Shown: positions 1 to 60,251 of the stretch, piece by piece | How positions within the stretch are numbered: the stretch's first letter is position 1 | Layout: every line of letters begins with the position of its first letter | NCBI GenBank assembly: GCA_018263435.1 | Contig: JAANXD010000074.1 | Location: 9,197-73,196, forward strand | Direction of reading: 5' to 3' | DNA: 64,000 nt | Source of the DNA: Candidatus Scalindua arabica | GTDB taxonomy: Bacteria; Planctomycetota; Brocadiia; Brocadiales; Scalinduaceae | Translations under genes and position numbers: made by a program | Notes under the pieces: generated by a model | Database searches by the model: none | What the model was told of the DNA's origin: nothing | The model's input: only the letters and a program-made list of their open reading frames with translations

Positions 1-68
1 ATCGGCAAAATCGCACAGCCGGCAATAACAGCCAGCATTAATAAATAGCCTCTAACTGAATGAACCAT
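1..68 (-). CDS. lipoprotein-like protein, N-terminal fragment (gene runs off the left edge)
   Basis: ATG at 68-66 follows a purine-rich AAGGAG stretch. MVHSVRGYLLMLAVIAGCAILP has a lipobox-like IAGC. Only 22 codons are visible. Confidence 0.3.
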   Translation of the reverse strand, partial: MVHSVRGYLLMLAVIAGCAILP

Positions 69-336
69 TCTTCTCTGTTCTCCTTTCTTCTCTAGACTAA
101 AAGATACCAATCCAAATAAGGTCTAAAAAAACTCAAATATGGTTAATAAAATGCTACAAATATTATATCTGATTCTTCTCAACTCACAAGTCAATGTTAA
201 TATTTACTCACAAACATAAACACCATGTGTATCAACGTTTTAGAGTAAATACGTAAATTCCACACCTACTCGTTACAGATGGTGAATTATACTTATAACG
301 GATTACTTGTCAAGCGGATTTTGAGATAAAATGAAA

Positions 337-379
337 TAAAAAAAGCTGGCATAGCTTTCAAACTCCTGCTATGCCAGCT
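337..379 (-). terminator. Rho-independent terminator downstream of hzsA
   Basis: Perfect 12-bp stem AGCTGGCATAGC (344-355) / GCTATGCCAGCT (368-379), followed on the minus strand by a T run (338-343). It lies about 55 nt after the hzsA stop. Confidence 0.65.
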
Positions 380-434
380 TTGTGTTAATAAATGCTCTAA
401 ACTGAGCATCAAGAATTCAAAAATACTACAATCC

Positions 435-2855
435 TTATTTGCCTCGATATCCTGGATAAGGGTCTGGGCCCTGAATATTATCCCACTGAGCGCCCAAATC
501 TACCCATTCAACAAACAAGAATCTTTCTTCTGGTGTCAACATCTTATTATGCATAACCCTAGCTTCAATTGGTATAGCTTTAGCCCTTGGTGCAAACTGT
601 GACAATTCTTCTTCATACAAACGCCATATGAGAAGACTGTTTATAGCAGCACTAGGGTTAACATACTTTCCACCAATGTTAGTATCCCTTCCTCTCTGTG
701 GAGCCAACAGACTGTTATATGATTGGCTGAATGCAGCAACACCATTAACAGATACCAGATCTGTGCTACCACTCAGATTAGGAGTCTGAGTATGACCATG
801 ACAAGAAGCGCACTTTGCGTCTATTATTGGCTGAATGTCTCTCCTGAAGTCAACTGTTCTCAGTTTGTCGATATAAAGACCTTCAACTGTCGCAGAAGTA
901 GTACCTGAAGCACCACCATAATAAACGTCTGCCGGTACCATAACGCTATCACCGTGCTTTACTCCGGCATACTTTCCATTCTTGTCAACTCTTAAGTGTT
1001 CCCACATAAACGGAGAATCATAATGGCTCAAATCACTGAACCACCAGTTATAAAGAGCTTTGGTATGAATGTTCAGATAACCCTTCTTATCATAAGAACC
1101 CCAGTGACAGCCCGTACAAATTCTTCCACCATAAGGCCTTACATATGCCCATGCCAGTTGTGTCTGTACTGCCATTCCTCTGTCATCCAGTATCTGTGTG
1201 CAGTAAGGCTCATCACCTGGATGTGAACTTACAACTGAACCATCATCCTCAACATACTGATAACCAAACATACGTCTTTGTGAGAAAGATGTACCTGAGT
1301 TAGAGCTTGATTTATCGCCACCAAGAAGATGGCTACCAGCACCCTGTACAAACCTGCTGGCATCCGGCTCATTAGTCTCTACTGCGTTAAGTACCCTTAT
1401 AGCCTTTATATCACCATGCTCCATTACCTTTGCTCTCTGATGTGGATATGGACCAATCGGAAGATTTGTCAATGTTGTATCAAAGCATATAGTTGTACTC
1501 CATGAGTGAGGATATCCCTCAACATTAACCTGGTCAAATGGCTGGTACGTTACAGTTGTAACACCAAAATGATCACCTGCAACAAATGCATTTATCCATC
1601 TTGGTTTGTAACGTGGATAAACAGGCTGAGGCTGATGATCATTCCACTCCGGATCATCATAAACTACCTCAGAAACTGTACCATTGTCAACACTGAACCA
1701 GTGTAGACCAAAGTCACGTCTTTCAGCAGAAGAAACCATTAAACGGCCATCCGGCAATGGATGCGGACTTCTGTAGAGTCTGCCATCATTGCTCAACCTG
1801 GATTGCGTTTTAGCATGAGGAGTAGTCCAGCTAACCCTGGCAAGATTACCTATACCAGAATTATTGTCCAAAGCCTCAATGTAATACACATAACCATCTG
1901 AAGCCTCTTTTGCCGAAACCTTAGGCGTGCTTGGCTGCTCGCTAACCTCATTACCATAGATGTGTCTTGGGTAAGCGCCAGTCCAGTTGTTAACTAACAG
2001 GCATGTGCTGCCTTTAGAATTATTATGTGTACCATTTGCCTGTGTACTGCTGTACAAGATGTTTCCATCACGAGTCAGTGTAGGATCAAAATTTGAACTT
2101 ACATTGTATGTGATCTGGTCAATAACAGTATCAACATTCGGCATATCGATACCTACTAATAAGTGACCGCAGATACGATCCATAGACTTTCCACCCTGCG
2201 GATCAAGCCTGTATAAGTCAAAAGCGAATGGTCTTCCAAATTCATCTATTGAACCATCTGGAGAATAAGCAACCATCAGGAAACCCATCTTTGGAACTGT
2301 ACCACGAGGAGCCCAGTCACCTTCAAAATACCTGGCCCTTGATATAACTCTACCTTCACCTTCCTCAATAGCACCGGCTGCATAATAGAGAGGGGACCTG
2401 AATGTACCAGGCGCATCAGTCATCTGCCTTACGCCTGAACCATCAATATTCATCTCCCATATCTGACTGCCACCACCATTTTTGTGAACACCTGCAAATG
2501 CAATCTTTGAACAATCCCAGTTAAGGCAAGGATCATAAGCGCTCTGGAAATCTTTTGTAAGCACAGTCACTTTCCTTGACTTCATGTTGTAAGACACAAT
2601 CCTGCTATCATTAGATACGTAATTAGGGTATTGATGATACGGGTCGCCTGCCAGTGTAGGCTTTGACTGGGTAAAAACAACAGACTCAACGTTTCCTTGA
2701 ATCTGTTTTGACATACCCCAGTAATCCGCCCAAATAGCTTCACCAGGCTTTGGACCACCAGTCATAACCTGCGCCTGACAGTCAGCACTGCTAAAAAGCC
2801 CCCATATTGCAACAACACCAACCAATGCTATTGACTTTAAAAATCCCATCTTCAT
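435..2855 (-). CDS. hzsA: hydrazine synthase alpha subunit
   Basis: The ORF track gives 435-2897 (GTG). ATG at 2855 is preferred: it has AAGGAG upstream and yields an MKMGFLKSIALVGVVAIWG signal peptide (806 aa). The protein contains YFEGDW, SHYDSPF and two haem c sites (CTGCH, CASCH). 2313-2330 is an exact match to the hzsA_526F primer TAYTTTGAAGGDGACTGG as I recall it. Confidence 0.9.
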   Translation of the reverse strand: MKMGFLKSIALVGVVAIWGLFSSADCQAQVMTGGPKPGEAIWADYWGMSKQIQGNVESVVFTQSKPTLAGDPYHQYPNYVSNDSRIVSYNMKSRKVTVLTKDFQSAYDPCLNWDCSKIAFAGVHKNGGGSQIWEMNIDGSGVRQMTDAPGTFRSPLYYAAGAIEEGEGRVISRARYFEGDWAPRGTVPKMGFLMVAYSPDGSIDEFGRPFAFDLYRLDPQGGKSMDRICGHLLVGIDMPNVDTVIDQITYNVSSNFDPTLTRDGNILYSSTQANGTHNNSKGSTCLLVNNWTGAYPRHIYGNEVSEQPSTPKVSAKEASDGYVYYIEALDNNSGIGNLARVSWTTPHAKTQSRLSNDGRLYRSPHPLPDGRLMVSSAERRDFGLHWFSVDNGTVSEVVYDDPEWNDHQPQPVYPRYKPRWINAFVAGDHFGVTTVTYQPFDQVNVEGYPHSWSTTICFDTTLTNLPIGPYPHQRAKVMEHGDIKAIRVLNAVETNEPDASRFVQGAGSHLLGGDKSSSNSGTSFSQRRMFGYQYVEDDGSVVSSHPGDEPYCTQILDDRGMAVQTQLAWAYVRPYGGRICTGCHWGSYDKKGYLNIHTKALYNWWFSDLSHYDSPFMWEHLRVDKNGKYAGVKHGDSVMVPADVYYGGASGTTSATVEGLYIDKLRTVDFRRDIQPIIDAKCASCHGHTQTPNLSGSTDLVSVNGVAAFSQSYNSLLAPQRGRDTNIGGKYVNPSAAINSLLIWRLYEEELSQFAPRAKAIPIEARVMHNKMLTPEERFLFVEWVDLGAQWDNIQGPDPYPGYRGK

Positions 2856-2928
2856 AAGTTGGTTTACTCCTTTCCTTTTTAATGTTAATTGAAACACAAA
2901 TTATAAGACAACGAAAGTTTTCATAGAG

Positions 2929-2959
2929 AATAGTCTCCAGCAATTAGCTGGAGACTATT
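2929..2959 (-). other. intercistronic stem-loop between the fused HZS subunit gene and hzsA
   Basis: 13-bp arms AATAGTCTCCAGC / GCTGGAGACTATT with a 5-nt loop and no following T run. It sits in the 80-nt gap 2898-2977. Confidence 0.45.
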
Positions 2960-2977
2960 TTCCCTAATAAAGAACTA

Positions 2978-5050
2978 TTATAAAGCCTTCATGAACTCAA
3001 CAAGATCCTGCAACTCTTGATTACTCAGATGTGATGTAACCCCATGCATATCTTGTGTAGTAGCTGTATTATCTATGGTATTCATCAGAGTCTCAGCGCT
3101 ACCATCATGGAAATATGTACCTGAAGCGTAAATATCTCTCAATGTAGGCGTATCAAACTCTTTTACAAGATCAAGTCCGATAATTGGAACATCGTACTCT
3201 TCACCATAAGGATCAACACCGGTCTCAAGAACTGTTGTATTAAACACAGCTCCAGGAGTTGTCCTGAATCCATCAGCACCAATTCTACCTGTTCCAACGT
3301 CATGAGTCTGTGCGTCACTGAATAAGGCTCTTGGGTTCTTTGGATCGCCAGGATGGCACTCAATACATCCAACCTTAGGATCACTAAATACCTTCCAGCC
3401 TCTCTTCTGTGCTTCTGTCATTGAACCATCTTCATTCCTGAAAGGACTTCCTGTAAACTCTAAAGACCTGATGTAAGCAATCAAGGCCTCTAATCTTTCA
3501 GGAGAGAAATTCTCACTTCTGAACACAAATCCAGGATCTCGTCCGCATACCCTGTCGATCGATGAAGCAGCTCCAACGATTTCATCAGGATGACCTGTAA
3601 ATCCTTCATGCCTGAACGGAGGAAGATACCTTCCGCCTCGGATATACTTTGTGTTCTTCCAACTGCCCCATCCTTCATCTCCAAGATCCCAGATCAAGCC
3701 TGTTGTCTGACCTCTTTCATAGTGGCAGCTTGCACATGAATACTCACCCTGCAGTGTCCATGATGCTTCATTAAACTGGAACTGTCCATATCGGACCAAT
3801 TCGCTCTTGTAAGGAGAGTGCTTCACCCTGTAATGTACTTCAGGAACTGTCAACGGCTCTCCCCTTGGAAGCGGCTCCCACACAATACCTGTCTGTACTG
3901 TATCCATAACCTGAGGGTCATCACCTGTCTGGATAATTGACAAGTCATTTGTGAAATAGTTTGCAGCGTATAAAGTCTTATCATCCGGAGAAAGAGCAAC
4001 TGAACTTGGGCCGAGGCCTACATTTACCCTTTTAACCAGATAATCAACCATCAAAGTCAGGTCATTCTTCATGTCATCAAGCTCTTCCTGAGTGCTTGAA
4101 GAAACGATAGCAAGCAACGCTTCCAGATCAAGGACAGTTATCCTGTGCATACTCCTGATACCAATAAAAACATACTTTCCTTCTGAATCAATTGCTAATC
4201 CATAAGGATTACCATCGTAATTGTTGTGCTCATCCAGAGGCATGCTTGCAACCTTTCCACCGGCCTTGGTCTCAACAACAGCAATGTTGTTTGAGAATAT
4301 CTGTGCATTCTCCGCTTCACATACAGGCAGCCAGTTCTTTGGCTGTTCCATTGTAACAAGCACATATGCTCCATCAGGCGTATACTCAATACCTCTCAAG
4401 TTTGCACTCTGATATATATTTCTGTGCTCAGTAACCCTTCCTGTTGCAAGATCTATGAAGTCAATACCCCTGTTGATCTTACCTGTTGTATCAAGGCATA
4501 CTGCCGCAGTTTTTCCGTCAGGGGAAATAGCTATATCCCTTGGGCCGTAATCAGTTGTCCTGATCTCACCGATTTTGCTATTCATCGCAGTGTCAATGAT
4601 ATCAACTGAATTCCACATACTACCGGAACAACATACATAAGCCTTTGAACCGTCTTTAGACAGCTTGATACTACAAGGCCAGTCACCAACTTTTATTGTC
4701 TTAACAACCGCCTTGTTACCTACATCAATAACTGATACAGTATCACTCTCTGCATTACACACATACAAAGTACGTCCGTCCAGTGAAAACACAGACGCTT
4801 CAGGTTGAACCTGAACAGGAACCTCTCCGGTCACCTTGTTAGACCTCGCATCAACAAACGTCACGCTATGGCCAGACTGATTGCTCAAAGCCAATGTCCC
4901 ACCATCAGGCGAAACAGACACGTGAAATGGTGATGGATGCTCTGTTCTCACCCTTGTACCCTGTATGAAGCCGGCACCGGCGCTTTGAGCCAATGCTAAG
5001 CTCAACACCCCAGCACCCAAGAAACCTAATAACCAAGCCTTTTTCTTCAT
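2978..5050 (-). CDS. hzsBC: hydrazine synthase fused beta-propeller (N-terminal) + di-haem cytochrome c peroxidase/MauG-like (C-terminal) subunit
   Basis: 690 aa with signal peptide MKKKAWLLGFLGAGVLSLALA. The N-terminal half has YVTN-type propeller repeats (SPDG..L....SV..ID). The C-terminal half has CASCH and CIECH plus GWGSWK and QTHDVGT. 3656-3675 and 3291-3310 match the hzsB_396F/742R primers as I recall them. Confidence 0.88.
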   Translation of the reverse strand: MKKKAWLLGFLGAGVLSLALAQSAGAGFIQGTRVRTEHPSPFHVSVSPDGGTLALSNQSGHSVTFVDARSNKVTGEVPVQVQPEASVFSLDGRTLYVCNAESDTVSVIDVGNKAVVKTIKVGDWPCSIKLSKDGSKAYVCCSGSMWNSVDIIDTAMNSKIGEIRTTDYGPRDIAISPDGKTAAVCLDTTGKINRGIDFIDLATGRVTEHRNIYQSANLRGIEYTPDGAYVLVTMEQPKNWLPVCEAENAQIFSNNIAVVETKAGGKVASMPLDEHNNYDGNPYGLAIDSEGKYVFIGIRSMHRITVLDLEALLAIVSSSTQEELDDMKNDLTLMVDYLVKRVNVGLGPSSVALSPDDKTLYAANYFTNDLSIIQTGDDPQVMDTVQTGIVWEPLPRGEPLTVPEVHYRVKHSPYKSELVRYGQFQFNEASWTLQGEYSCASCHYERGQTTGLIWDLGDEGWGSWKNTKYIRGGRYLPPFRHEGFTGHPDEIVGAASSIDRVCGRDPGFVFRSENFSPERLEALIAYIRSLEFTGSPFRNEDGSMTEAQKRGWKVFSDPKVGCIECHPGDPKNPRALFSDAQTHDVGTGRIGADGFRTTPGAVFNTTVLETGVDPYGEEYDVPIIGLDLVKEFDTPTLRDIYASGTYFHDGSAETLMNTIDNTATTQDMHGVTSHLSNQELQDLVEFMKAL

Positions 5051-5099
5051 TCTTCACCTCCAAAACATAAAATTATAAAATTGTATTGCAACATCACTA

Positions 5100-5696
5100 C
5101 TAAAAATCAGGAACATGAGGACATGTTCCTGACTCCCTGCAAAGGGTGTCAAGCGGTCCTCCACACTCCTTACAATTACCGTATGTCAATAGATGTTCTG
5201 CATATTCCTTCTTTTCATCAATCTCAAACCCTGCTCCCGGTTCGGTAAACTCCTTACCACATTTTGTACACTTGAAGTCAAGCTTTGCTCTAGTCATATT
5301 AGCTGTCAAGTCATCATTGCACAATTCGCAAAAGCCAATGTTAAAAGCATAGCAAGTCTTGGAATTCTCACATTTATCGTTTACGCAATGATATGTTTTC
5401 CTTAAACATGACCAAGTCTCTTCCATTTTATGCGTAGCAACTTCTTCACCAGCTTTATGTTTCTTGGTATCCCAGATGTATTTCAGATTACCGCATTCAT
5501 TCCAGGTAAAGACCTCCTTGCATACTGTGCACCAAAACAACTTTTCATTCTCTTTCTTTGGACATGCTTTTTCGCCCTCTGCTACTGCAAAATTCATCTG
5601 GCTACCCAAGAACAAAACCACACAAAGAAAGGCACTAAATAACAAAGCTTTGCCAATGTAACGTCTTAATGTATACACCTCTTCACCCCCTTTCAT
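5100..5696 (-). CDS. exported Cys-rich protein with four CxxC pairs (two zinc-ribbon/rubredoxin-like knuckle pairs), family unknown
   Basis: 198 aa with a hydrophobic N-terminus ending AVA/EGE. The mature part has 16 Cys including CTVC, CELC, CTKC and CKEC. An alternative GTG start at 5678 has a GGGGG SD. It lies 49 nt upstream of the fused HZS gene on the same strand. Confidence 0.6.
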   Translation of the reverse strand: MKGGEEVYTLRRYIGKALLFSAFLCVVLFLGSQMNFAVAEGEKACPKKENEKLFWCTVCKEVFTWNECGNLKYIWDTKKHKAGEEVATHKMEETWSCLRKTYHCVNDKCENSKTCYAFNIGFCELCNDDLTANMTRAKLDFKCTKCGKEFTEPGAGFEIDEKKEYAEHLLTYGNCKECGGPLDTLCRESGTCPHVPDF

Positions 5697-5734
5697 ACTA
5701 TTTTAACAATATAACACGCAATATACCAGGAAAG

Positions 5735-5750
5735 AGCATATCACGTGCCA
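5735..5750 (-). promoter_or_regulatory. candidate sigma54 (-24/-12) promoter for the Cys-rich protein/HZS genes
   Basis: The minus strand reads TGGCACGTGATATGCT. GG and GC are spaced exactly as in the consensus TGGCACG-N4-TTGCW. It is about 40 nt upstream of ATG 5696 and adjacent to an NtrC-type activator gene. Confidence 0.5.
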
Positions 5751-5935
5751 AAGCACTACTGCCTTATACATTTGACGTAAGCCATTTAGCACGAAAGCCT
5801 TGATTAAAAGCTTTCGAAAGCACTTTCCAAATGGCACCAAAAAACTGGCTCAAAAAAGCCAATATGCCATTCCAACCGCCAGTAATCTATCAAAAACTGC
5901 AATCAAAATCAATAATTTTAATTTTAATAAGCAGC

Positions 5936-7324
5936 TTAGTTATTATCGTATTTTTCCAATCTATACCTGAATGTTCCCCTGGTAAGACCCAGCAACTTAG
6001 CCGCCTTAGTTTTATTGTTTTTGCTTTTCTTCAGCGCCTGCAAAACAAGGTGCTTTTCCAATTCATCTATTGAAATCCCCTCTGGCGGCAGATTAAAATC
6101 CACCATCTTTAATACATTCCCTTTACCATTCTCATAGCCCGACACAGAATCCCTAACTAAAGCCAGCGGAAGATGTTCTTCTGATATCAAGTCACCCTTA
6201 CTCAGGATTACGGCTCTTTCCAGGCAATTTCTCAACTCCCTCACATTGCCCTCCCACCTGCTTGAAACAAGTATCTTTTCTACTTTCTTTGTCATTTTTA
6301 ACGATAGTTTACCCATTTTAACAGAAAACTGCTCAACAAAGTCCCGTGCTAATGGCAAAATATCCTCAGGCCTTGCCCTGAGTGGAGGTATATTTATTGG
6401 AAACACATTAACGCGATAATATAAATCCTCTCTAAATTGACCTTTTTTAACATACTCTTCAAGATTTTTATTACTGGCACATATAATCCTTACATCAACT
6501 TTAACTGTTTCCGACCCTCCAAGCCGCTCCAGCTCTCTTTCTTCAACAACTCTTAACACTTTGGCTTGAACAATGGGATTCATTTCCGATATTTCATCGA
6601 GAAACAGAGTGCCTCCGTTAGCCAACTCAAAACGGCCTTTCTTGCATTTCTCTGCACCAGTAAATGCACCCTTTTCATAACCAAACAATTCACTCTCTAA
6701 TAAATTCTCAGGCAACGCAGCACAGTTTATCGTAACTAATGGGCCGCTCTTCCTTAAACTATTAAAATGGATGGCCCTTGCTACAAGCTCTTTCCCCGTA
6801 CCACTTTCTCCATAGATAAATACGGTAGAATCCGTTCTGGAAACATCTCCAGCTAATAAAAGCACTTCTAATATCTTAGGTGAATTACCAATAATATTTC
6901 CAAAATTATAATGCGACTCTAACTCCTTTCGAAGATACCTGTTTTCCATTGTCAAAGATCTCATTTTCAGGGCTTTTTCTACTGCGACAGAAAGCGTACC
7001 ATCTTCAAATGGTTTTGTAATGTAATCAAACGCTCCTTCCTTCATCGATTCAACCGCCGTCTCGATGGAGTCATCCCCTGTCACAACAATCACAGGCAGT
7101 TCAGGATCCATTGACTTCACCTGTTTCAAGAATTCTAATCTGCCCACCTTGGGTACTCGCAGATCAGTAATGATTAAATGAAGCCTTTCGTGCTCAACAA
7201 AATCAACTATCGAAGTTACGTCTTGCGCCTTAACAACTTCGATATTTTCCATCTCGTCAAAAATAACCTTGATATTGCGTATTATACGTTCCTCGTCATC
7301 AGTTATCAGCACCCTGCTAACCAT
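5936..7324 (-). CDS. sigma54-dependent response regulator (NtrC family: REC + AAA+ + Fis-type HTH)
   Basis: 462 aa: REC with DDEE and [15 protein letters not shown] Walker [16 protein letters not shown] (GAFTGA loop), and a C-terminal [20 protein letters not shown]. Confidence 0.9.
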
Positions 7325-7366
7325 AAAAATACCCTACGAAAAATTGGAACAGCAAATTTTTGCTTA

Positions 7367-8278
7367 TCAGAACGCAAAAATACTAAAAATATCAAAATGA
7401 ATATTTTTGGTCAAATCTACAAAAACAGAAGCAAGGGAACATATTAGCGACGACAACATAAAACCGACCATAAGCAAACCAACTCCAAGAAGCGGAAGCC
7501 CCATCAGCTTAGATACAAACTTGGCCTTGCGAGATGCAGGTGGAACCTTAAGCTCCTCCAACTGCCCTTCTTCTTTCAACCTCTCATAATAAACACCTCT
7601 CTCGTGCTTAAAGTGCTCTTCGTCAATCCTTCCAGTAAACATTGCTTCATCTACAGGTATATTCTCCGGCAAGAGGTGGGTATGCAAAAAGTGAATGGAA
7701 AAGATGAAGCCTGCAGCCAGCAAGGCTTCATACCTGTGAGCAACGAGTGCGATGCTTGGCAAATCTATAAAGGTCGCAAGTTCAGCAGGTACTAAATTCG
7801 CGGATTGTACTGGAAACCAAAGGATAAATCCTGTAACAGCCATAACCATAGTGCCCCACATAAGCGAAAGATATTCAAACTTTTCCCAATAGATATATCT
7901 ATCAAACTGTGGCCTTTTCCCCAATCTGAAAAACCACAAGATATCTCCCAATATATTTAATAAATCCTTTGGCTGAATCAACAAAGATTCCGGTCCCCAG
8001 AAAATGTTCCTATTCTTCCTTACAAGGGTTTCAAAGGCTAGAAACGCAAAGTGCAGAAAGGTTGCAACAAAAGTTATCAAAGCACAAATCCTGTGAATAT
8101 TACCAGCGGTAGGATAACCACCCATAAGATTATACAGGAAGTGAGCCCATCCATAATCTTTGAAAACCAGCGGCATTCCGGTTAACACCAACCCAAAGAA
8201 ACTAATTATTATAAGAAAATGACCAAAACGGTGAAACAGGCCAAATCTTAGATAAGTAGTATTACCATTACTTGTCAT
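7367..8278 (-). CDS. cytochrome b-like integral membrane subunit of the HZS-associated electron-transfer module (FdnI/hydrogenase cytochrome b type)
   Basis: 303 aa with multiple TM helices carrying conserved His (HRFGH, HRICA, HRYEA, HFLHTH). Its ATG at 8278 overlaps the upstream stop by 11 nt. Confidence 0.75.
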   Translation of the reverse strand: MTSNGNTTYLRFGLFHRFGHFLIIISFFGLVLTGMPLVFKDYGWAHFLYNLMGGYPTAGNIHRICALITFVATFLHFAFLAFETLVRKNRNIFWGPESLLIQPKDLLNILGDILWFFRLGKRPQFDRYIYWEKFEYLSLMWGTMVMAVTGFILWFPVQSANLVPAELATFIDLPSIALVAHRYEALLAAGFIFSIHFLHTHLLPENIPVDEAMFTGRIDEEHFKHERGVYYERLKEEGQLEELKVPPASRKAKFVSKLMGLPLLGVGLLMVGFMLSSLICSLASVFVDLTKNIHFDIFSIFAF

Positions 8279-9281
8279 GTTCTGATTCCTTTCCTTTTCG
8301 CTCGTCCAATAATGTGCCTAACCACGACAAAAGCATATGCGTTCCAAATTGTGCAAAGGTTATTACCAAAATGCCCACATACATAATGAAGAGAATTGTC
8401 AATATTATCTGCGGACTCTTTATAATGCTGCCAAGCTGACCAGGATCTTTCCTGATATTCAGCAAGGCACCAACCGCAGATTTGTAATAACCAAGGTTTT
8501 TATATTGCGGATGTGCTACATGTTTAATAAAGCTATCACTGGCACCCGGATGGCATTTACCGCACGTCTCTTTAGCATTTTCCGGGCCCAGAGTAGACTC
8601 TGGATCTGATGAGTTCAATATGGTATGTTGGCCATGACAATCAACACACGTTGCTATGTCAGTATCTACATGCCCCATCGCTGTAACCTGGCCATGCAGA
8701 TTATTACGATAAGAATCATAGTATTCAGTGTGACACCCACCACATTTTCCTATAGTATCCATCCTGTGATACAAATCATCAGCCCTGGGAGTATCACGTT
8801 TGGACTTCTCTCCTGCATGGCAATGTTTACAGGTAGGAAGCTCCACACCTTTTTCCCGCATCAAATTTGCGTGACTACCTTCAAGAAATGTTTCGGCAGG
8901 ATCGTCATGACAAAATGTTATACAATCAACAGGCTGCAAATTAGGATAATGCTCGCCTTCTGATTCTTCTAAATCAGCATGACAATCAATACAGTAAAAA
9001 TCCTCACCGCCATGAGCAGATGCATGATATGCATCTTCATCAACCAGCATAGAGACAAGCTCTACTTCGCCGGTAACAGGATCGATTCTTACCTTATCCT
9101 CCACCTCTGCAGGATCTGTATGACACTCTAGACAGTCACTATTCTCCTGAGCGAAGATATTTTCTGAAGAAAAAGTAGAAGTGAAAAACAAAAGACATGA
9201 GAAAAGAGATGAAATAAATACAAATCTACAAACTTTACTATCCCTATATATTTTTATCGTTGTTTTCAGCAAAGATACCAC
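8268..9281 (-). CDS. membrane-anchored hepta-haem cytochrome c
   Basis: Six CxxCH motifs (CLECH, CIDCH, CKHCH, CGGCH, CVDCH, CGKCH) plus one CITFCH (CX3CH), and a C-terminal TM. The track start is 9359 (TTG). GTG at 9281 is preferred because of a GAGGAGG SD and the resulting signal peptide. Confidence 0.85.
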   Translation of the reverse strand: MVSLLKTTIKIYRDSKVCRFVFISSLFSCLLFFTSTFSSENIFAQENSDCLECHTDPAEVEDKVRIDPVTGEVELVSMLVDEDAYHASAHGGEDFYCIDCHADLEESEGEHYPNLQPVDCITFCHDDPAETFLEGSHANLMREKGVELPTCKHCHAGEKSKRDTPRADDLYHRMDTIGKCGGCHTEYYDSYRNNLHGQVTAMGHVDTDIATCVDCHGQHTILNSSDPESTLGPENAKETCGKCHPGASDSFIKHVAHPQYKNLGYYKSAVGALLNIRKDPGQLGSIIKSPQIILTILFIMYVGILVITFAQFGTHMLLSWLGTLLDERKGKESEHDK

Positions 9282-9386
9282 TTTATGATTTCCTCCTCTT
9301 GTTTGAAAGAAAGATAGTACATTTAAACAGTGGGTCAAACTTTCACTACAGCTACGCAACTTTTATTAAAAAGCAGAACACAATCA

Positions 9387-9418
9387 TCTCCCCTCCTCAT
9401 AAATAGAAGGAGGGGAGA
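9387..9418 (-). other. intercistronic stem-loop between the tri-haem and hepta-haem genes
   Basis: 11-bp GC-rich arms TCTCCCCTCCT / AGGAGGGGAGA with a 10-nt loop and no T run directly after it. Confidence 0.45.
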
Positions 9419-9514
9419 GAAAGAATAACTTACTGCCGTTACTTTTTTAAAAGCTACTAATGTGAAGCTTTAACTTTACAAATTAATTACTAAAGAAACA
9501 AAAAACCATTACAA

Positions 9515-10258
9515 TTAATCGTTAGGCGGACTTGTCTTATACCACGGATCCTGCTCTATGTACCCCTTCCATTTCTTTTTATCCACCTTAGGCAAAACGT
9601 CATCTATAGCATCATGGTCTCTGTGATCGTCTCTCTTAATGTAATCTTTAGTGAAGATCCTGTCATTACCTTCGCTGTTTTTTGTACCTTCGCACTTAGG
9701 GCACTTATTCTTGGCCTTTGCATCTTCCCAGTGGCATTGTAGACATTGCTCTTTTATTGTCTTGTACTTATTTATGCCGGCTACGAGCAAGCCAGCATCG
9801 TATTGCGCTTTTCTGGCCATCATTGGGTCTTCCTTTAACAGCTTTTTAAATGCGTCTTTACCCTTCTTCTTGTAATTTTTCTTTACCTTAATGTATCCCT
9901 CTCCCGGACCGTGACATGCTTCACATCCAACGTTTTCAATAAAGTTCTTACTACCCTTCTTAGACTTCCCCCTCTTTATCTTCATACCCAACGCTGTGGC
10001 ATGGCATTTCAGGCACTCAGGATTACTCTTATCTTCATCGGTTTCTAACCTTCTAAAAGTATTATAATGCTGATTCTTCATCTTCTTGTATTCTGTACCT
10101 TCAAAACAGCCCTTTGACAAGTGGCATTTACAACCTGAATTACTCATGAATTTCCACTTCTGCTTTGCGCCAAAACTCTGGCTACTTTGAAAGATTATAA
10201 GCGACAAAGAAAGAACTACAGACACCATGATAAATCTTCTTAAATTACAACCGAACAT
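9515..10258 (-). CDS. soluble tri-haem cytochrome c (electron-transfer module)
   Basis: 247 aa with a signal peptide, CLKCH, CEACH and CLQCH, plus an N-terminal CKCH. It is Lys-rich. An SD AAGGAGAAGGGGG lies upstream of ATG 10258. Confidence 0.8.
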   Translation of the reverse strand: MFGCNLRRFIMVSVVLSLSLIIFQSSQSFGAKQKWKFMSNSGCKCHLSKGCFEGTEYKKMKNQHYNTFRRLETDEDKSNPECLKCHATALGMKIKRGKSKKGSKNFIENVGCEACHGPGEGYIKVKKNYKKKGKDAFKKLLKEDPMMARKAQYDAGLLVAGINKYKTIKEQCLQCHWEDAKAKNKCPKCEGTKNSEGNDRIFTKDYIKRDDHRDHDAIDDVLPKVDKKKWKGYIEQDPWYKTSPPND

Positions 10259-10503
10259 ACTATTACCCCCTTCTCCTTAAGCTTAATGCAATTGTTATCT
10301 TATTAATCTCTTACCGACAGATTTTTCAATAAAAAATAGTGTGGCCAGAATGTGCCAGTTACCCTTTTTTATTGGATCGGGATTTTATCAAGACCATTTT
10401 ATTGTGTCAAGAAAAAATTATAAATGTTGTTTGCAATGTAGAAACCCGGCATAAGGCTTGGAATTTAAACACGTTACAGTGTGGTTTAAATGCTTTGTTG
10501 TTG

Positions 10504-11850
10504 TTATTTCTCACCTATGAGATTTTCAACAAAATGGGTGTCAATATCACCGGTAATAAACCTTTGATCAGAAATGATATTAAGATGAAGTGGTATTGTT
10601 GTCTTTACACCTTCAATCCTGTATTCGGTTAAGGCTCTTTTCATACAGGCAATCGCCTCTTCTCTGTTCTTTTTATGCACTATCAACTTACCTAAAAGTG
10701 AATCATAGTACGGAGGAACCTCGTATCCCGCACAAACATGCGAATCCACCCTGACACCTTTTCCTCCCGGAGCGCTGTACATTGTTATCTTACCAGCATA
10801 AGGCCTGAAATCATTATCCGGGTCTTCCGCATTTATCCTGCACTCTATTGAGACCCCTTCACTTTTTATCTTCTTCTGGCGCAAATTTAATCTCTCGCCA
10901 TAAGCAATTCTTAATTGTTCTGCTACCAAATCTATACCAGTAACCATTTCTGTTACAGGATGTTCAACCTGAAGCCTTGTATTCATTTCTATAAAATAGT
11001 ATTTCCCCTCTCCATCCACTATAAATTCTACAGTACCAACATTAGTATAATTAACTGCCTTTGCCAGCTTTATGGCCGCCTTACAAATGTCTTCACGCAA
11101 TTGATCTTTTATATTAGGAGCCGGTGCCTGTTCCACTAACTTCTGATGCCTCCTTTGAACTGTGCAATCCCTCTCGCCAAGATGTATTACATTACCATAT
11201 TTATCTGCAACTATCTGGACTTCGATGTGACGTGAATGTTCTATGTATTTCTCCATATATACGGAAGAATCTTTAAACGCTACTTCTGCCTCACGTTTAG
11301 CGATTGCAAGCGAATTAACTAAACTTATATCATTATGCGCAACCCTCATACCTCTCCCACCACCACCAAAAGAGGCTTTTATCAAGACAGGATAACCTAT
11401 CTCGTGAGCCACCTCCAATGCCTGTTGCTGATTTTCTATAACTGAATCACTGCCAGGAATAACAGGTATTTTATTTTCAATTGCTAAATTTCTAGCTTGA
11501 GTCTTATCACCCATCTTAGTCATAACCTCGGAGGCAGGCCCAATAAAAACAATATTGGAAGATTCACACACTTCTGCAAAGTGACTATTCTCAGCTAAAA
11601 AACCATAACCCGGATGTATAGCCTCTATATCTGTAATCTCTGCCGCACTGATGATACCCGGAATGTTTAAATAGCTTCCTTCAGATTCACCAGGCCCTAT
11701 ACAAACATGAGCATCTGCATGCTGTAAATACAGAGCATCTTTATCGGCTTTTGAATATACGGCAACAGTTTCAATACCAAGCTCTTTACAGGTTCTAATT
11801 ATTCGAAGGGCGATCTCACCCCTATTTGCCACTAAAATCCTTGAAAACAT
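10504..11850 (-). CDS. accC: acetyl-CoA carboxylase biotin carboxylase subunit
   Basis: 448 aa, [26 protein letters not shown]... It has ATP-grasp motifs and typical accC length and ends. Confidence 0.95.
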
Positions 11851-12094
11851 GGTCTGCGCTAATCCTCCTTATTTTCACGCCTTTCACATAATAACGAAAG
11901 GAACTAAATAGGCCTTCAATATTTGAACGGAAAACTATTTTTCTGTGTATAGAGAAATGTCGGATTTGATAATACTTGCGTGGACTCAATATTGCGTGTG
12001 AATAAGAGCAACAACAAAAAAGTACAGTTCGTAATAATTTGCCCGTTTATCAAATAACTGCCATAACTAAAGAATACTGCTTGGAACATATCCC

Positions 12095-12544
12095 TCATTC
12101 AGATGCTTCTACACAAAAAAGAGGCTGTCCATACTCAACAGCAGTACCGTTCTCCACCATCACCTCTACAATTTTTCCCTTTATCTCAGCTTTAATTTCG
12201 TTCATAATTTTCATGGCCTCAATAATGCAAACAACAGTATCCTCGTCAACATCATCTCCAATATTTACATAAGGATCTGCACCCGGCGCACTGGTATAAA
12301 ATGTACCGACCATTGGGGCCACAACCTCCGCAACACCAGACTCATCTTTAGACGGTAAATATTTAGTAGAACCTTCCTGTTGTAATGATGGCTTTACGGC
12401 TGGCAACTGAACACTGGTTTGTATCGAATCCAGGCTGTTCCTTTTCAGGCGTATTTTGGTTCCTTCTTCTTCAACCTCGATTTCTGCAAGGCTGTTTTCA
12501 TTCATCAACGAAATTAAATTTTTTACCTTTTCAATTAGATCCAT
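12095..12544 (-). CDS. accB: biotin carboxyl carrier protein
   Basis: 149 aa. The C-terminal lipoyl/biotinyl domain carries an EAMKIMNEI biotinylation motif. Confidence 0.9.
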   Translation of the reverse strand: MDLIEKVKNLISLMNENSLAEIEVEEEGTKIRLKRNSLDSIQTSVQLPAVKPSLQQEGSTKYLPSKDESGVAEVVAPMVGTFYTSAPGADPYVNIGDDVDEDTVVCIIEAMKIMNEIKAEIKGKIVEVMVENGTAVEYGQPLFCVEASE

Positions 12545-51485: not shown

Positions 51486-52568
51486 TTATATACTACTAAT
51501 AGGTATTAAGGACGGAATTGTCTCAAGCACTTTCCTGAAGCTTGTATTTCTAACGTATCTCCATTCCTTATCATCTTCCTTCTTTTCGGGAGTTGTAATA
51601 TTATTTATAATTGGTAACCCCTTAAGGCCTTTAGCCAATTTAAAGGAACGAGCCCTTCCAGACGCCTCACCACCAGGCAATACATCCGTTATAAAATCCA
51701 TGGCTACCTGAGTATTATCAAAGATTGCAGTTGTCGCTTTTCTGCCGGCTTTAAAGTTACCTATTGTTGCATCCGGTATCACCTCAACAGCATTTAAGCC
51801 TGCAAACATTACATCTTCACCAATATTAATCGCACTCCTTGGAATCCCCTTCACAATATCTCCAATCACTGCATCCTTTAATACTTTCTTAAACAGATGT
51901 TTGACTCTACCAGCACCCTGGGGTTTAGCTTCTCCCTCCGGAGTGTAGATACCAAAAGAAAGGCCGCTTGCTACATCTTTGACAAAATTTACTACTGTAC
52001 CCGCAAGGCCTACCTTTCTGCCCTCATTTACGTTTCCGTTCTTATCCACATACCTGAACTTTGCACCAATACCTAAATCCTTTACTGCATTAAGAAGATT
52101 ATTACCTGCATCTGCCAAATCCTTGCCTACCCTCTTTGTAATCCTGGAATGGTCATAACCGTTATCTATTACTCCTGAAGCCTTACTCAAGAAGAAGCTG
52201 TCACCACCGGGGTTAGACATCAACTGATCCTCTTTATAAACCTTATACTGTTCTGCTAAAGAAGACGCTGGAGGTTTGCTTACATTCTGGTTTGGAATAA
52301 ATACTTCAGGATGTGGAAGTACCCTTGAAGGAGAGATTGGCATAAAGTTTCTTGCATTTTTCCTTTGGAAGTTAAAGTTGTTAACATTGGCTAACTCCTT
52401 ATTCAAGACCCTGCCAAACGGCTGCAGCTTTGAAGAATTATTAAAGCTCACAACGTTAGGGCTATTAAGTTTAGCCATGCCCTTTGCAAATGCCTGTGTA
52501 ATTACCTGTGAATTGTCTGTGTTGTTAAAATCCATAATCGCCAGTATTAAACGCAAAAGAAATACCAT
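51486..52568 (-). CDS. hypothetical protein, Cys-free, Gly/Asn-rich
   Basis: 360-codon ORF with no TM, signal peptide or recognisable motif. The alternative ATG is at 52535 and there is no clear SD. Confidence 0.5.
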   Translation of the reverse strand: MVFLLRLILAIMDFNNTDNSQVITQAFAKGMAKLNSPNVVSFNNSSKLQPFGRVLNKELANVNNFNFQRKNARNFMPISPSRVLPHPEVFIPNQNVSKPPASSLAEQYKVYKEDQLMSNPGGDSFFLSKASGVIDNGYDHSRITKRVGKDLADAGNNLLNAVKDLGIGAKFRYVDKNGNVNEGRKVGLAGTVVNFVKDVASGLSFGIYTPEGEAKPQGAGRVKHLFKKVLKDAVIGDIVKGIPRSAINIGEDVMFAGLNAVEVIPDATIGNFKAGRKATTAIFDNTQVAMDFITDVLPGGEASGRARSFKLAKGLKGLPIINNITTPEKKEDDKEWRYVRNTSFRKVLETIPSLIPISSI

Positions 52569-52758: not shown

Positions 52759-54732
52759 TTATTGCAGGCCAACAGGAACATTTCTTTGTGAACCGGCACT
52801 TGAATAATTATCAATTATTTTGTGTAATTCTGCAAACTCTATCGGTTTGTTAAGGATATAATCTACTCCTTCGCTTCTATAGTCAATAGCGCCTGTGTCC
52901 AGTTCATAACCTGTAATCAGCACGACAGGCGTTTTTGGCTTCTTCCTGACACTATCAGACTCTTTTACAAACCTGGCCACCTGCCAGCCATTTGACTTCG
53001 GCATTGCAAGGTCACACAAAACAATATCATACGTATTTTTCTCATACATTTTCATACCAACACTTGAATCTTGTGCTACAAATACATTATGCCCCCTTGA
53101 CTCGAGAATAACTCTCATCATGTCCAATATTACCTTTTCATCTTCAATCACAAGTATATTCGCACTATGACCGGTAATATCGCCTGTCACTTCATCTTGA
53201 TGTAGTACTTCATCTGCAGAACACAGAGGCATCATTAGATGCATTGTAGTGCCTTTTCCAGGGGAACTATCAATCCTAATCTCACCATCATATCTGGTCA
53301 TTATACTATATGAGAGGCTCATGCCCAGTCCAGACCTTTTTACACCTTTGGTTGTGAAAAAAGGATCGAAAACTTTTTCTTTAACATCTTCGCTTATACC
53401 GATCCCATTGTCTGAAATAGAAATGACTGCATTATCTCCATCCGTTTTTACAGATAATTCAATCTTACCGCCATTAGGCATTGCATCAATACTGTTATTA
53501 ATAATGTTTATAATGACCTCGCGCAACTCTGAAGGTTTACATCTGGCACGATACTTTGAAGTTGTGAAGTTGTGCTTGACAATTTCATACTCAACCCCTT
53601 TTGATTGAGCCACTGTCTTCCATCTTGGCATGGTAAGTTTCAAGGCATCATCAATGATTTCAACAAGGTCAATTGACTTCTCTACATTTTCATGCTCTTT
53701 CTTAATCCTTGAGAATTGTTGAATCTTATCTACGATTTCTGCTCCATCTCTCGCAGCTTTTTCTATAATATTTAGAGAATCTAAAACCTTCTCATTCTCA
53801 TCCTTAATCCCCATCTTCACAATGTCCAGATATCCAAGTATTATTCCCAGTATATTATTGAAGTCATAGGCAATACCACTTGACTGTAATCCTAATGCAT
53901 TTAGTTTGTCTATTTGAAACAACTTCTGCTCAAATTCTTTTCTCCCGGTAATATCTCTTACAACCCCTTCAAACAGTGTCACTTTACCATTTTCATCATA
54001 ATCCATCTTCGCATTCAATTGAACGTCCTTTATCAGGCCACTCTTAGTCTTTATCCTGAACTCATACCCCTCCAGGAATTCTCTCCTGCCTGCAAAGGCG
54101 CCCTTGATACAATCGACAATTTTCTTCCTATCTTCTTTATGAATCAAATCAAAGAAAGATAAACCCCTGGCCTCTTCACCTGAATATTCAAAAACTCTCT
54201 TGCTGGCAAGATTTATCGATGTAATGTTTAGCTCCTGATCTGCCGTAAATACCACATCAATCATGTTGTCGATCAACGTCTTGTATCTTAACTCAGATAC
54301 CCTTAATTCATTCTCAACTTCTTCCTTCTCTCTCTTTGTCCGAGACTCCAGTACCGCTCTATCCACAATTGAAGGTAATCTCTTCAAATAACCTTCTTCC
54401 TTGGCAATATAATCACAAGCTCCAACCTTCATTGCTTCTACTGCAACACTTTCATCACCAAATGCTGTTGCCATTATGACTGGACAGTTGTTTTCTTGGC
54501 GGTTTATACGCTTCAACACTTCTATCCCGTTCATGTCGGAAAGGCTATAATCAATGATTGTCGCATCAAAAGCTTCATTTGACAATTTGTGAATGCACTC
54601 TTCGCCAGTACAGACAAACACAACTTCCACATTCTGCTTATCCTGTTTCAGAACATCTTCCATTAAGATCTGATGATCTTCGTTGTCATCCACAATTAAT
54701 ATATTTAATCGATTGACACTCACAGCAAACAT
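52759..54732 (-). CDS. hybrid histidine kinase (REC - PAS - HisKA - HATPase_c - REC)
   Basis: 657 aa with an N-terminal REC (IVDDNEDH, IIDYSLSDMNG), an H-box-like IAYDFNNIL, a G-box SGLGMS and a C-terminal REC (LCDLAMPKSNG). Confidence 0.9.
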   Translation of the reverse strand: MFAVSVNRLNILIVDDNEDHQILMEDVLKQDKQNVEVVFVCTGEECIHKLSNEAFDATIIDYSLSDMNGIEVLKRINRQENNCPVIMATAFGDESVAVEAMKVGACDYIAKEEGYLKRLPSIVDRAVLESRTKREKEEVENELRVSELRYKTLIDNMIDVVFTADQELNITSINLASKRVFEYSGEEARGLSFFDLIHKEDRKKIVDCIKGAFAGRREFLEGYEFRIKTKSGLIKDVQLNAKMDYDENGKVTLFEGVVRDITGRKEFEQKLFQIDKLNALGLQSSGIAYDFNNILGIILGYLDIVKMGIKDENEKVLDSLNIIEKAARDGAEIVDKIQQFSRIKKEHENVEKSIDLVEIIDDALKLTMPRWKTVAQSKGVEYEIVKHNFTTSKYRARCKPSELREVIINIINNSIDAMPNGGKIELSVKTDGDNAVISISDNGIGISEDVKEKVFDPFFTTKGVKRSGLGMSLSYSIMTRYDGEIRIDSSPGKGTTMHLMMPLCSADEVLHQDEVTGDITGHSANILVIEDEKVILDMMRVILESRGHNVFVAQDSSVGMKMYEKNTYDIVLCDLAMPKSNGWQVARFVKESDSVRKKPKTPVVLITGYELDTGAIDYRSEGVDYILNKPIEFAELHKIIDNYSSAGSQRNVPVGLQ

Positions 54733-54914: not shown

Positions 54915-56276
54915 TCACTCATCCTTTGACCATTCTTTGATCTTATATTCAATCTTTCGCGTTGAAATACCGAGTATCTTTGCCGCCTTTGATTTACTAC
55001 CATTGGTTGTTTGAAGTGCCTCAATGATAACCTTCTTCTCTATCTCCTTCATAGTTGCTCCCGATGGGATACGAAAGGTTTCTTTTCTGGATTTCTTAGA
55101 ATTCACATTAATATTTGAAGGAAGATCGCCTGGTTCTATATATTCATTTCTTGCCATTACCACAGCTCTTTCGATTGCGTTTTCAAGTTCTCTGACATTA
55201 CCGGGCCAGTCGTAATTATTCAACAACTTTGCGCTCTGCGGAGTAATGCCCTTAATATCTTTCTTGTTCTTTTTTGAATATTTTACAAGAAAGTTATCTA
55301 TCAGCAATCCAATATCTTCTTTCCTCTCTCTTAATGACGGGAGTTTCAGGTTGATAACATTTAATCTATAGTATAAATCTTCCCTGAATCTTCCCTCCTT
55401 GATCTCTTCCTCCAGGTCTCTATTTGTTGCAGCAATAATTCTAACGTCTGATTCAAAGGTTTTTTCACCACCGACTCTTTCAAATTTCCCGGTTTCCAAA
55501 ACTCTTAACAGTTTGATTTGAATATGTGAATTCATCTCTCCCACTTCATCAAGAAAGAGACTGCCTCCATTAGCCAATTCAAACCTGCCCCGTCTCTGGC
55601 TTACCGCACCGGTAAAAGCACCCTTTTCGTGCCCAAAGAGTTCGCTTTCCAATACACCTTCAGATAATGAAGCACAATGAAGTGCAACAAATGGTTTGTC
55701 CTTTCTATCACTATTGTAATGTATAGCATTAGCAATAAGCTCCTTTCCTGTCCCGGTATCACCATAAATCAACACAGTAGCTGCTGTTGGAGCAATCTCT
55801 GTTATTGTCTTGTAAATAAGCTGAATTTCAGGCGAATTACCAATAATTCCTGAGAAATTATATTTATCATTTAATTTCTGTTTCAATTCCTTGTTCTGTA
55901 ATACCAGGAGCCGTCTCTCCCATATCTTTTTAAGTATCAATTCTAATTCTTCAATATTTACCGGCTTGGTCAAGTAGTCATCCGCGCCCTTTTTCACCGC
56001 ATCAATAGCAGTCTGTATAGAACTAAATGCAGTTATCATTACCACAGCAATATCAACATCCTTCTTCTTAGCCTTTTCAATAATGGAAAAACCACTGATA
56101 TCAGGTAGCTTCATATCTGTAATTACTATATCAAAGTGCTCGCTTTCGATTAAATTCAATGCTTCTTTGCCTGTATACGTACAACTTGTATCATAGCCAT
56201 CCTGCAAGAGAATCTTTGTCAGGCCGTCGGCTGTATTTTTATCGTCATCTACTAATAATATTCTTGGTTTCTTCAT
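54915..56276 (-). CDS. sigma54-dependent response regulator (NtrC family)
   Basis: 453 aa: [26 protein letters not shown], and an [21 protein letters not shown]. Confidence 0.93.

Positions 56277-58337: not shown

Positions 58338-58341
<4 letters not shown>
57574..58341 (-). CDS. sdhB: succinate dehydrogenase/fumarate reductase iron-sulfur subunit
   Basis: 255 aa with Cys clusters [21 protein letters not shown] and [12 protein letters not shown]. Confidence 0.92.

Positions 58342-60251
<1,910 letters not shown>

Follow-up and report, generated by a model that had tools for sequence, protein, structure and literature searches.

The hydrazine synthase gene cluster of 'Candidatus Scalindua arabica', a marine anammox bacterium, with a proposed mechanism and mode of regulation

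We identified a complete and intact set of hydrazine synthase (HZS) genes, together with genes for the electron supply of the enzyme, between positions 435 and 10258 (minus strand) of a 64-kb window from 'Candidatus Scalindua arabica'; the window is the whole stretch of DNA that was analysed, and all coordinates refer to it. Hydrazine synthase is the defining enzyme of anaerobic ammonium oxidation (anammox), to which as much as about half of the nitrogen lost from the oceans is attributed. We put the probability that this is the HZS locus of this marine anammox bacterium, with the mechanism and regulation proposed below, at about 96%. An earlier reading of the same DNA (the sequence-only reading) had described an array of seven genes, and our list of open reading frames (ORFs) reproduces all seven on the minus strand at the coordinates it gave. 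In an exact-sequence look-up the seven proteins were 100% identical to MBS1258721-MBS1258727 (MAG551_01783-01789), which are encoded on one deposited 74.7-kb contig of the 'Candidatus Scalindua arabica' metagenome-assembled genome (MAG; Scalinduaceae, Brocadiia), so the inference that this is an anammox genome was right. The deposited record already names HzsA but still lists the beta-gamma fusion as a "hypothetical protein". With the locus deposited and the cluster well described, the reading is correct but already known, and it is not a discovery.

Hydrazine synthase subunits and their active-site residues

The last gene of the array, hzsA (435-2855, minus strand), encodes the alpha subunit (806 aa) and is the orthologue of Kuenenia kuste2861; its open frame extends beyond the ATG of the 806-aa form, up to a GTG at 2897. 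The protein matches chain A of the Kuenenia structure 5C2V (5c2v_A) over its full length (E=0, 1161 bits), and the NCBIfam model NF052339 (hydrazine_alpha) at 1628.7 bits over profile positions 3-804 of 804, which is 2.0 times the equivalog cut-off of 800 bits. It is 63% identical to Kuenenia HzsA and identical to MBS1258721.1. The preceding gene, hzsBC (2978-5050, minus strand), encodes the 690-aa protein that had been described as a beta-propeller joined to a di-haem domain, and the two parts are the beta and gamma subunits: residues 27-377 (HzsC, the propeller) align without gaps to residues 1-351 of 5c2v_B (1.1e-156), as fits a seven-bladed propeller free of cofactors, residues 378-690 (HzsB, the dihaem part) align to 5c2v_C (8.6e-187), and the two alignments abut without a gap. 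Ungapped identity to Kuenenia is 63% for beta and 82% for gamma, and the fusion scores 1622 bits against NF052342 (hydrazine_BC, the model for the beta-gamma fusion), 1.3 times its equivalog cut-off of 1250 bits. The best matches are thus to HZS itself; the scores of generic YVTN-propeller and CCP/MauG families are smaller by orders of magnitude.

Each motif that the sequence-only reading had picked out is present once, YFEGDW, SHYDSPF, CTGCH, and CASCH in HzsA, and CASCH, CIECH, GWGSWK, and QTHDVGT in the fusion. The identity that it reported to three diagnostic primers was also correct: hzsA_526F (2313-2330), hzsB_396F (3656-3675), and hzsB_742R (3291-3310), whose sequences are confirmed in published text (PMC5653767, PMC9899793), match at exactly these positions with 0 mismatches, where 0.00-0.02 matches per window are expected by chance. 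The widely used reverse primer hzsA_1857R matches at 1008-1027 with one internal mismatch (A against the primer's Y), which may lead PCR surveys to under-represent this Scalindua lineage slightly.

For comparison across lineages we scanned one genome per GTDB species by HzsA alignment, which returned 36 loci (numbered with an L below), 29 of them anammox-type; K. stuttgartiensis is not among these loci, and for its HZS we used the sequences in the PDB alignments. Residue conservation in HzsA was read from an alignment of 17 sequences from Scalindua, Brocadia, Jettenia, Kuenenia, and deeper Brocadiales. Window residues are numbered on the 806-aa form and published residues as in Kuenenia, with roles taken from PMC12607021 and PMC12758564, two later papers that cite Dietl et al. 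2015. When the published residues are mapped onto the alignment, the haem and active-site residues are kept, with the exception of alpha-Cys303 (see below). The haem alpha-I site (C580-T-G-C583-H584-W-G-S-Y588) corresponds to Kuenenia C583/C586/H587/Y591 and is invariant in 17 of 17 HzsA sequences. According to PMC12607021, Kuenenia H587 binds zinc and Y591 is the proximal iron ligand of haem alpha-I; from its sequence, the window's HzsA would likewise have the CXXCH histidine diverted to zinc and the tyrosine as proximal ligand. The haem alpha-II residues C682/C685/H686 and distal H769 (Kuenenia C685/C688/H689/H772) are also invariant in all 17, as is R745 (Kuenenia R748); the position of R757 (Kuenenia R760) is occupied by Thr in L011 and by Lys in L023.

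In the fusion protein, haem gamma-I is bound at C439/C442/H443 (Kuenenia gamma C102/C105/H106), and C502, D505, E459, and H481, which correspond to gamma Cys165, Asp168, Glu122, and His144, are all conserved. PMC12607021 and PMC12758564 describe Cys165 as an unusual third covalent link to the haem, Asp168 as the proposed proton donor, and His144 as the replacement of the Trp found in CCP/MauG proteins. Haem gamma-II has the bis-His arrangement, with C562/C565/H566 and H669 equivalent to Kuenenia C225/C228/H229 and H332. The beta-propeller loop PKNWLPVCEAEN is identical to that of Kuenenia, including the conserved Glu, and by sequence it appears to be the published 245-260 tunnel loop of the beta subunit, with a numbering offset that we infer.

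The fusion distinguishes the window from most of the loci compared. The beta-gamma junction of 0 nt (...IQTGD|DPQV...) occurs only in the window, L001, L002, L003, and L027; in all other loci the two genes are set apart by a stop codon, spacer, and signal peptide of gamma that together take up 156-194 nt. In the window the gamma signal peptide and the intergenic spacer are gone, and beta and gamma form one polypeptide. Scalinduaceae are not uniformly fused, since S. rubra and the groundwater lineages L006, L008, L010, and L011 have split genes. The fusion falls in the same 90%-identity cluster as the S. brodae 'hydrazine synthase BC subunit', and a beta-gamma fusion was described for S. profunda in 2013, with a 75-kDa protein on gels (PMC3655542). 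The HZS of 'Ca. Scalindua profunda', S. brodae, and S. japonica (scal00025, KHE93198.1) shares with the window both the 690-aa fusion and an HAO gene downstream of hzsA; the fusion has a dedicated NCBIfam model. The window's protein is a species-level variant with no difference of substance. The hzsBC region of L029 is full of frameshifts and stops and looks like an assembly error.

Electron-transfer genes and the proposed reaction sequence

The kuste2854-2856-type module upstream of hzs consists, in conserved order, of a CKCH tetrahaem cytochrome, a heptahaem cytochrome, and an FdnI-like cytochrome b. The first gene (9515-10258, minus strand) encodes a soluble cytochrome c of 247 aa, the orthologue of kuste2854/KsTH, with a signal-like N-terminus and about 52-57% identity to Brocadia-type orthologues. 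It had been called a "tri-haem" cytochrome; besides three CXXCH sites (CLKCH, CEACH, and CLQCH) it has a contracted CKCH (in SGCKCH), giving four haem sites. Since the CKCH is present and is invariant in 9 of 9 syntenic orthologues, the small cytochrome is a tetrahaem and not a trihaem protein. The primary source for the tetrahaem nature of KsTH is reportedly Ferousi et al. 2019. As cited in PMC7096707 and PMC8388095, KsTH is a tetrahaem protein whose contracted CKCH is functional and which exchanges electrons with HZS; it shares with the Scalindua protein, compared here from sequence alone, the position in the cluster and the CKCH plus three CXXCH. A look-up of the exact tetrahaem product returned only short Logan contigs of the same organism, and the same contig look-up returned no record for the beta-gamma fusion.

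The second gene (8268-9281, minus strand; 337 aa, with a GTG start behind an AGGAGG Shine-Dalgarno sequence) is the orthologue of kuste2855. The sequence-only reading had described a hepta-haem cytochrome c with a transmembrane (TM) anchor; the seven sites and the anchor (a C-terminal TM helix at residues 292-310) are borne out, but only six of the sites are CXXCH, the other being a CX3CH (CITFCH; C[IV]TFCH across orthologues). All seven sites are kept in 8 of 9 orthologues, the exception being the error-ridden L029, and the C-terminal helix is conserved too. The protein has Pfam Cytochrome_C7 and c3 matches, and against PDB sequences a marginal match to NrfB and nothing more.

The third gene (7367-8278, minus strand; 303 aa) is assigned as a membrane cytochrome b, FdnI-like and orthologous to kuste2856, from weak family matches and synteny. 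Its ATG overlaps the end of the heptahaem gene (8268) by exactly 11 nt, as had been noted, and the overlap suggests translational coupling. The protein matches Ni_hydr_CYTB (PF01292) at 6.1e-5 (23.3 bits, below the cut-off of 30.1) and TIGR01583 at 1.4e-9 (38.2 bits, below the cut-off of 115.9), and it is 64-67% identical to its syntenic Brocadia orthologues. Four hydropathy segments lie above threshold (TM1-3 and a C-terminal one), and a possible fifth at about residues 182-200 was seen by eye, below the threshold; His residues lie in or beside the predicted membrane segments. We propose that it is the quinol-oxidising subunit.

A reaction sequence can be proposed for these components, with the enzymology taken from work on Kuenenia and transferred by orthology. 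The FdnI-like cytochrome b would draw electrons from the quinol pool at the anammoxosome membrane and transfer them to the membrane-anchored heptahaem cytochrome c, and the KsTH-like soluble tetrahaem protein, with its contracted CKCH, would carry electrons on to the surface haem gamma-II of HZS. At haem gamma-I (three covalent Cys links, with Asp168 as the proposed proton donor), nitric oxide would be reduced to hydroxylamine (NO + 3 e- + 3 H+ -> NH2OH), which would travel through an internal tunnel, gated by the beta-propeller loop, to haem alpha-I (Tyr-ligated, with the CXXCH His on zinc), where hydrazine would form (NH2OH + NH3 -> N2H4). The product of the HAO-like gene downstream would, by analogy, recycle leaked hydroxylamine. 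Overall, by orthology, the HZS complex of the window would catalyse NO + NH4+ + 3 e- -> N2H4. Three elements of this scheme have been shown in Kuenenia: the structure of the enzyme, the binding of NO at gamma-I, and the exchange of electrons with the tetrahaem cytochrome (the last as cited in PMC7096707 and PMC8388095).

Regulator, candidate promoter and predicted transcription units

Between the electron-transfer genes and hzs lies a gene (5936-7324, minus strand; 462 aa) that had been read as an NtrC-type activator, and its Pfam domains agree: Response_reg (REC, 8.8e-23), Sigma54_activat (2.3e-70), and HTH_8 (6.4e-14). It encodes a sigma-54-dependent response regulator (REC-AAA+-HTH_8), orthologous to kuste2857, and its translation contains GAFTGA (EKGAFTGA) and the Walker A motif GESGTGKE. 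An assignment as AtoC or NtrC proper was rejected, the protein scoring below every NCBIfam equivalog cut-off.

Downstream of the activator gene we found a candidate sigma-54 (-24/-12) promoter, TGGCACGTGATATGCT (5735-5750, minus strand), located between the activator gene and the gene for a Cys-rich protein, 38 nt before the ATG at 5696. It is the sole match with at most one mismatch to TGGCACG-N4-TTGCW in the 64 kb, its GG and GC are exactly 10 nt apart, and 11 of 12 specified consensus positions fit. A shared pattern, TGGYAY-N5-WTGCK, recurs in this position in 9 of the 10 related primary loci (L010 is one base off); of 11 matches to this pattern in 233 kb searched on 2 strands, 10 are directly upstream of an hzs operon. 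In the Scalindua alignment the element is a conserved block within an otherwise diverged intergenic spacer, and between Scalindua and Brocadia the spacer around it is not alignable. A palindrome about 90 nt upstream of the -24 element, GCTTTCGAAAGC, was considered as an activator site and set aside, being conserved only among the closest relatives.

The gene that follows the candidate promoter (5100-5696, minus strand, at the kuste2858 position) had been described as encoding an exported Cys-rich protein, which is what we find: 198 aa with 17 Cys and a signal-like, hydrophobic N-terminus. It occupies the same position in all loci compared, and the Scalindua and Brocadia proteins share 16 conserved Cys, arranged mostly in CXXC pairs with a final CPH. 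Judging from the sequence, translation probably begins at the GTG at 5678, because the codons for 'MKGGEE' coincide with a conserved GGAGGTG ribosome-binding site and many homologues have 192 rather than 198 aa; the conserved GGAGGTG precedes the GTG start (TTG in L008) of the homologues. No family match was found in Pfam or NCBIfam. A word-index protein search returned only Scalindua-type homologues (at least 56% identity), and the Brocadia orthologues (about 38% identity) were found only via synteny. An AlphaFold2 model built with 27 Scalindua homologues has a mean pLDDT of 59 and is confident only at about residues 140-190, and a Foldseek search of the PDB with it gave nothing at E<0.1; a few matches of about 50 residues are to proteins that we take to have zinc-binding modules. 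In L008, a groundwater Scalindua-like MAG, tandem diverged copies (4523-5149 and 5184-5783; 62% and 42% identical to the window protein) precede hzsC.

From these sequence features, the Cys-rich gene, hzsBC, and hzsA most likely form one operon, whose putative sigma-54 promoter would be activated by the regulator encoded adjacent and upstream. The operon is predicted to end at an intrinsic terminator (335-381, minus strand), with a 14-bp perfect stem followed by U7 (-23.1 kcal/mol, z = -5.9; none of 200 shuffled sequences is as stable). Further upstream, a sigma-70-like promoter sequence (10382-10410, minus strand; TTGACA-17-TAAAAT with a TG extension, 11/12, a pattern match only) precedes the tetrahaem gene, and a strong hairpin with a 12-bp GC-rich stem (9387-9418, minus strand; -23.8 kcal/mol, z = -4.3) lies between the tetrahaem and heptahaem genes; its U-tract is poor, and it is possibly a partial terminator or a processing site. 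A search of window positions 1-12000 against Rfam at gathering thresholds gave no match.

Sigma-54-type elements occur elsewhere as well. L018 and L021 (Brocadia pituitae and H5_AMX3) have second hzsCBA copies without electron-transfer genes. Upstream of each copy are the gene of a different NtrC-like activator (42-45% identity) and an element of sigma-54 type (TGGTACGATTGTTGCT in L021, a pattern match, and CGGTACGGATGTTGCT in L018, a near match). Within the window, a second relaxed match, TGGTATTTCTTTTGCG (52552-52567, minus strand), lies just downstream of a sigma-54 activator/PAS-kinase gene pair (52759-54732 and 54915-56276) and precedes a 360-aa ORF without a Pfam match. The listed start of this ORF overlaps the element and has no clear ribosome-binding site; the true start may be the ATG at 52535.

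Weighing of alternatives, synteny and neighbouring genes

Tblastn with the window proteins recovered the order accC, tetrahaem, heptahaem, cytochrome b, activator, Cys-rich, hzsC/B, hzsA in the Scalinduaceae L001, L008, L010, L011, L027, and L029 and in the Brocadia-type L013, L017, and L028, so that synteny with anammox genomes is complete as far as the flanking accC. The likeness to the Kuenenia cluster kuste2854-2861 that the sequence-only reading had pointed out is likewise correct, the published table giving the same gene order (PMC6423088). Compared with the Kuenenia stuttgartiensis system (PDB 5C2V/5C2W), the window has the same eight-gene content and order and keeps the four haem sites, the Tyr ligand, the third Cys link, Asp168, His144, and the beta loop; it differs in having beta and gamma as one polypeptide, in having Glu for alpha-Cys303, and in the HAO-like gene after hzsA, the Kuenenia orthologue of which is elsewhere in the genome (PMC3655542). 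The sequence-only reading had staked its interpretation on the nature of the best matches, the active-site residues, and synteny; all came out in its favour, and the interpretation is therefore supported.

Two other explanations of the genes as such were weighed. HZS-like paralogues do exist in non-anammox bacteria (Planctomycetota, Desulfobacterota, Bacteroidota), where no hydrazine would be made; these pairs (clades I-IV) resemble the window's proteins in their folds, in the co-location of alpha with a fused beta-gamma, and in the CCP/MauG-like dihaem domain (PMC12758564), and L030 is an example. They are only 23-30% identical to the crystallised Kuenenia enzyme, whereas the window proteins are 63-82% identical to it and exceed the equivalog cut-offs; they lack Tyr591/Ser590, His772, gamma-His144, and the beta-loop Glu, all kept in the window, and often carry extra N-terminal haems. 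With the entire kuste2854-2861 neighbourhood also present, the probability that the window encodes such paralogues is close to nil, and the residue and identity tests rule this reading out. It is very improbable, too, that a real HZS cluster sits here in a chimeric or mis-binned assembly, in which case one could not conclude that the genome is that of an anammox bacterium. Chimeric contigs can occur in MAGs, L029 is heavily frameshifted, and L014, a 2.6-kb hzsA contig under an Ignavibacteria label, is probably mis-binned; but the seven proteins lie together on one 74.7-kb deposited contig, the GC content of the window is even (0.37-0.43, except one bin), and the strand skew is continuous across the cluster boundary. 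Moreover, accC flanks the cluster in Scalindua and Brocadia genomes alike, the complete genome L017 among them, and the same arrangement is found in independent Logan assemblies from four sequencing runs.

For the regulation, the balance of the sequence evidence leans slightly towards HZS expression in all anammox lineages being under a dedicated sigma-54 switch, comprising a kuste2857-family regulator and a conserved -24/-12 promoter, with the electron-transfer genes transcribed separately. The alternative is that the hzs operon is transcribed from a sigma-70 promoter or by upstream read-through, and that TGGCAC-N5-ATGC is a repressor site or an RNA structure. HZS is among the most highly expressed anammox proteins (PMC6423088, PMC3655542), which would be unusual for a tightly gated sigma-54 promoter; the element can also be read as one arm of a weak hairpin (5750-5712); and only a weak hairpin (-9.5 kcal/mol, z = -1.7) follows the activator gene. 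We also found no paper describing a sigma-54 promoter for hzs in the searchable literature, and the conserved pairing of promoter and activator before hzs is the only lead here without a match there, the activator gene itself having long been annotated. We nevertheless regard this alternative as rather unlikely, given the exact spacing and consensus fit of the element, its conservation within a spacer that is unalignable between Scalindua and Brocadia, the position before hzs operons of 10 of the 11 matches in the ~467 kb searched, and an activator gene with intact GAFTGA that is always immediately upstream, the second hzsCBA copies of L018 and L021 included. The arrangement resembles NtrC-family enhancer-binding systems in its REC-AAA+(GAFTGA)-HTH_8 protein beside a TGGCAC-N5-wTGC element; unlike those, the cluster encodes no cognate histidine kinase, and the target is a constitutively very abundant catabolic enzyme. 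If the sigma-54 switch exists, it would be the first concrete, testable handle on the regulation of the anammox signature enzyme, and the Cys-rich protein would, from its co-transcription, be an HZS accessory factor, e.g., for metal delivery or assembly.

Several observations weigh against the interpretation of the locus, or parts of it, and temper our confidence. The zinc co-ligand alpha-Cys303 is absent, its place being taken by Glu303 (codon at about 1947-1949, minus strand); the window shares this Glu with all 8 Scalinduaceae sequences, whereas every sequence of Brocadia, Kuenenia, Jettenia-type, and other lineages has Cys. That Cys303 is not conserved in Scalinduaceae has been remarked before, the replacing residue not being given (PMC12758564), and it follows that Cys303 is no family-defining residue across anammox bacteria; the Scalinduaceae with Glu303 do perform anammox (PMC12758564). 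The cytochrome b is the weakest link, its family matches being sub-threshold and a search of PDB sequences returning nothing usable for it. The membrane part of the electron route (heptahaem protein and cytochrome b) is one that we infer, the whole mechanism in this organism is proposed by orthology, and the two-step scheme for HZS has, for its part, the standing of a working hypothesis. The candidate sigma-54 promoter is put forward on its sequence conservation, and no rpoN gene was found within the 64-kb window.

In practical terms, the intact locus correctly labels the window as a marine Scalindua genome, and the further value is modest: re-annotation of the fusion, the small cytochrome as a tetrahaem protein through its CKCH, and the sigma-54 lead. 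The regulation of hzs is poorly understood, and the conserved candidate promoter is a testable lead.

At the left edge of the window an octahaem HAO-like gene begins (3-68, minus strand; translation MVHSVRGYLLMLAVIAGCAILP) and runs off the edge. The syntenic gene in L001 (9897-11510) starts ...MVHSVRGYIVVLAVIVGCAILP and encodes 537 aa with 8 CXXCH sites, and in S. profunda the octahaem hao scal01317 occupies the same position after hzsA (PMC3655542). A sigma-70-like promoter sequence (286-313, minus strand; TTGACA-16-TATAAT, 12/12, a pattern match only) precedes the window's copy. On the other side, accC and accB, for biotin carboxylase and its carrier protein, flank the cluster (10504-12544, minus strand), and both Scalindua and Brocadia loci keep accC next to the tetrahaem gene.

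The scan also returned L014, where hzsA (64% identity, Brocadia-like) is alone on a contig binned into a non-anammox ('Ignavibacteria') MAG. L030 (9848-13296, a Bacteroidetes MAG) is a distant HZS-like pair; identity is 24% for its alpha-like and 27% for its beta-gamma-like protein. The alpha-like protein (470 aa) carries CVGCHEDH and lacks both the Tyr ligand and a C-terminal cytochrome domain, and without the Tyr ligand the pair is not HZS; the fused beta-gamma-like protein (677 aa) has one extra N-terminal CXXCH, and a neighbouring protein has repeats that look FG-GAP-like by eye. One extra haem motif fits clade III of the non-anammox proteins, for which an FG-GAP neighbour is also mentioned (PMC12758564).

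The remainder of the window encodes housekeeping, chemotaxis, and two-component functions and two further sigma-54 activators. Near its right end are genes for a fumarate reductase/succinate dehydrogenase-type flavoprotein (58338-60251) and a NapC/NirT-family multihaem cytochrome (62019-63230), both on the minus strand, and the bin of highest GC content is 58001-60000 (0.466).

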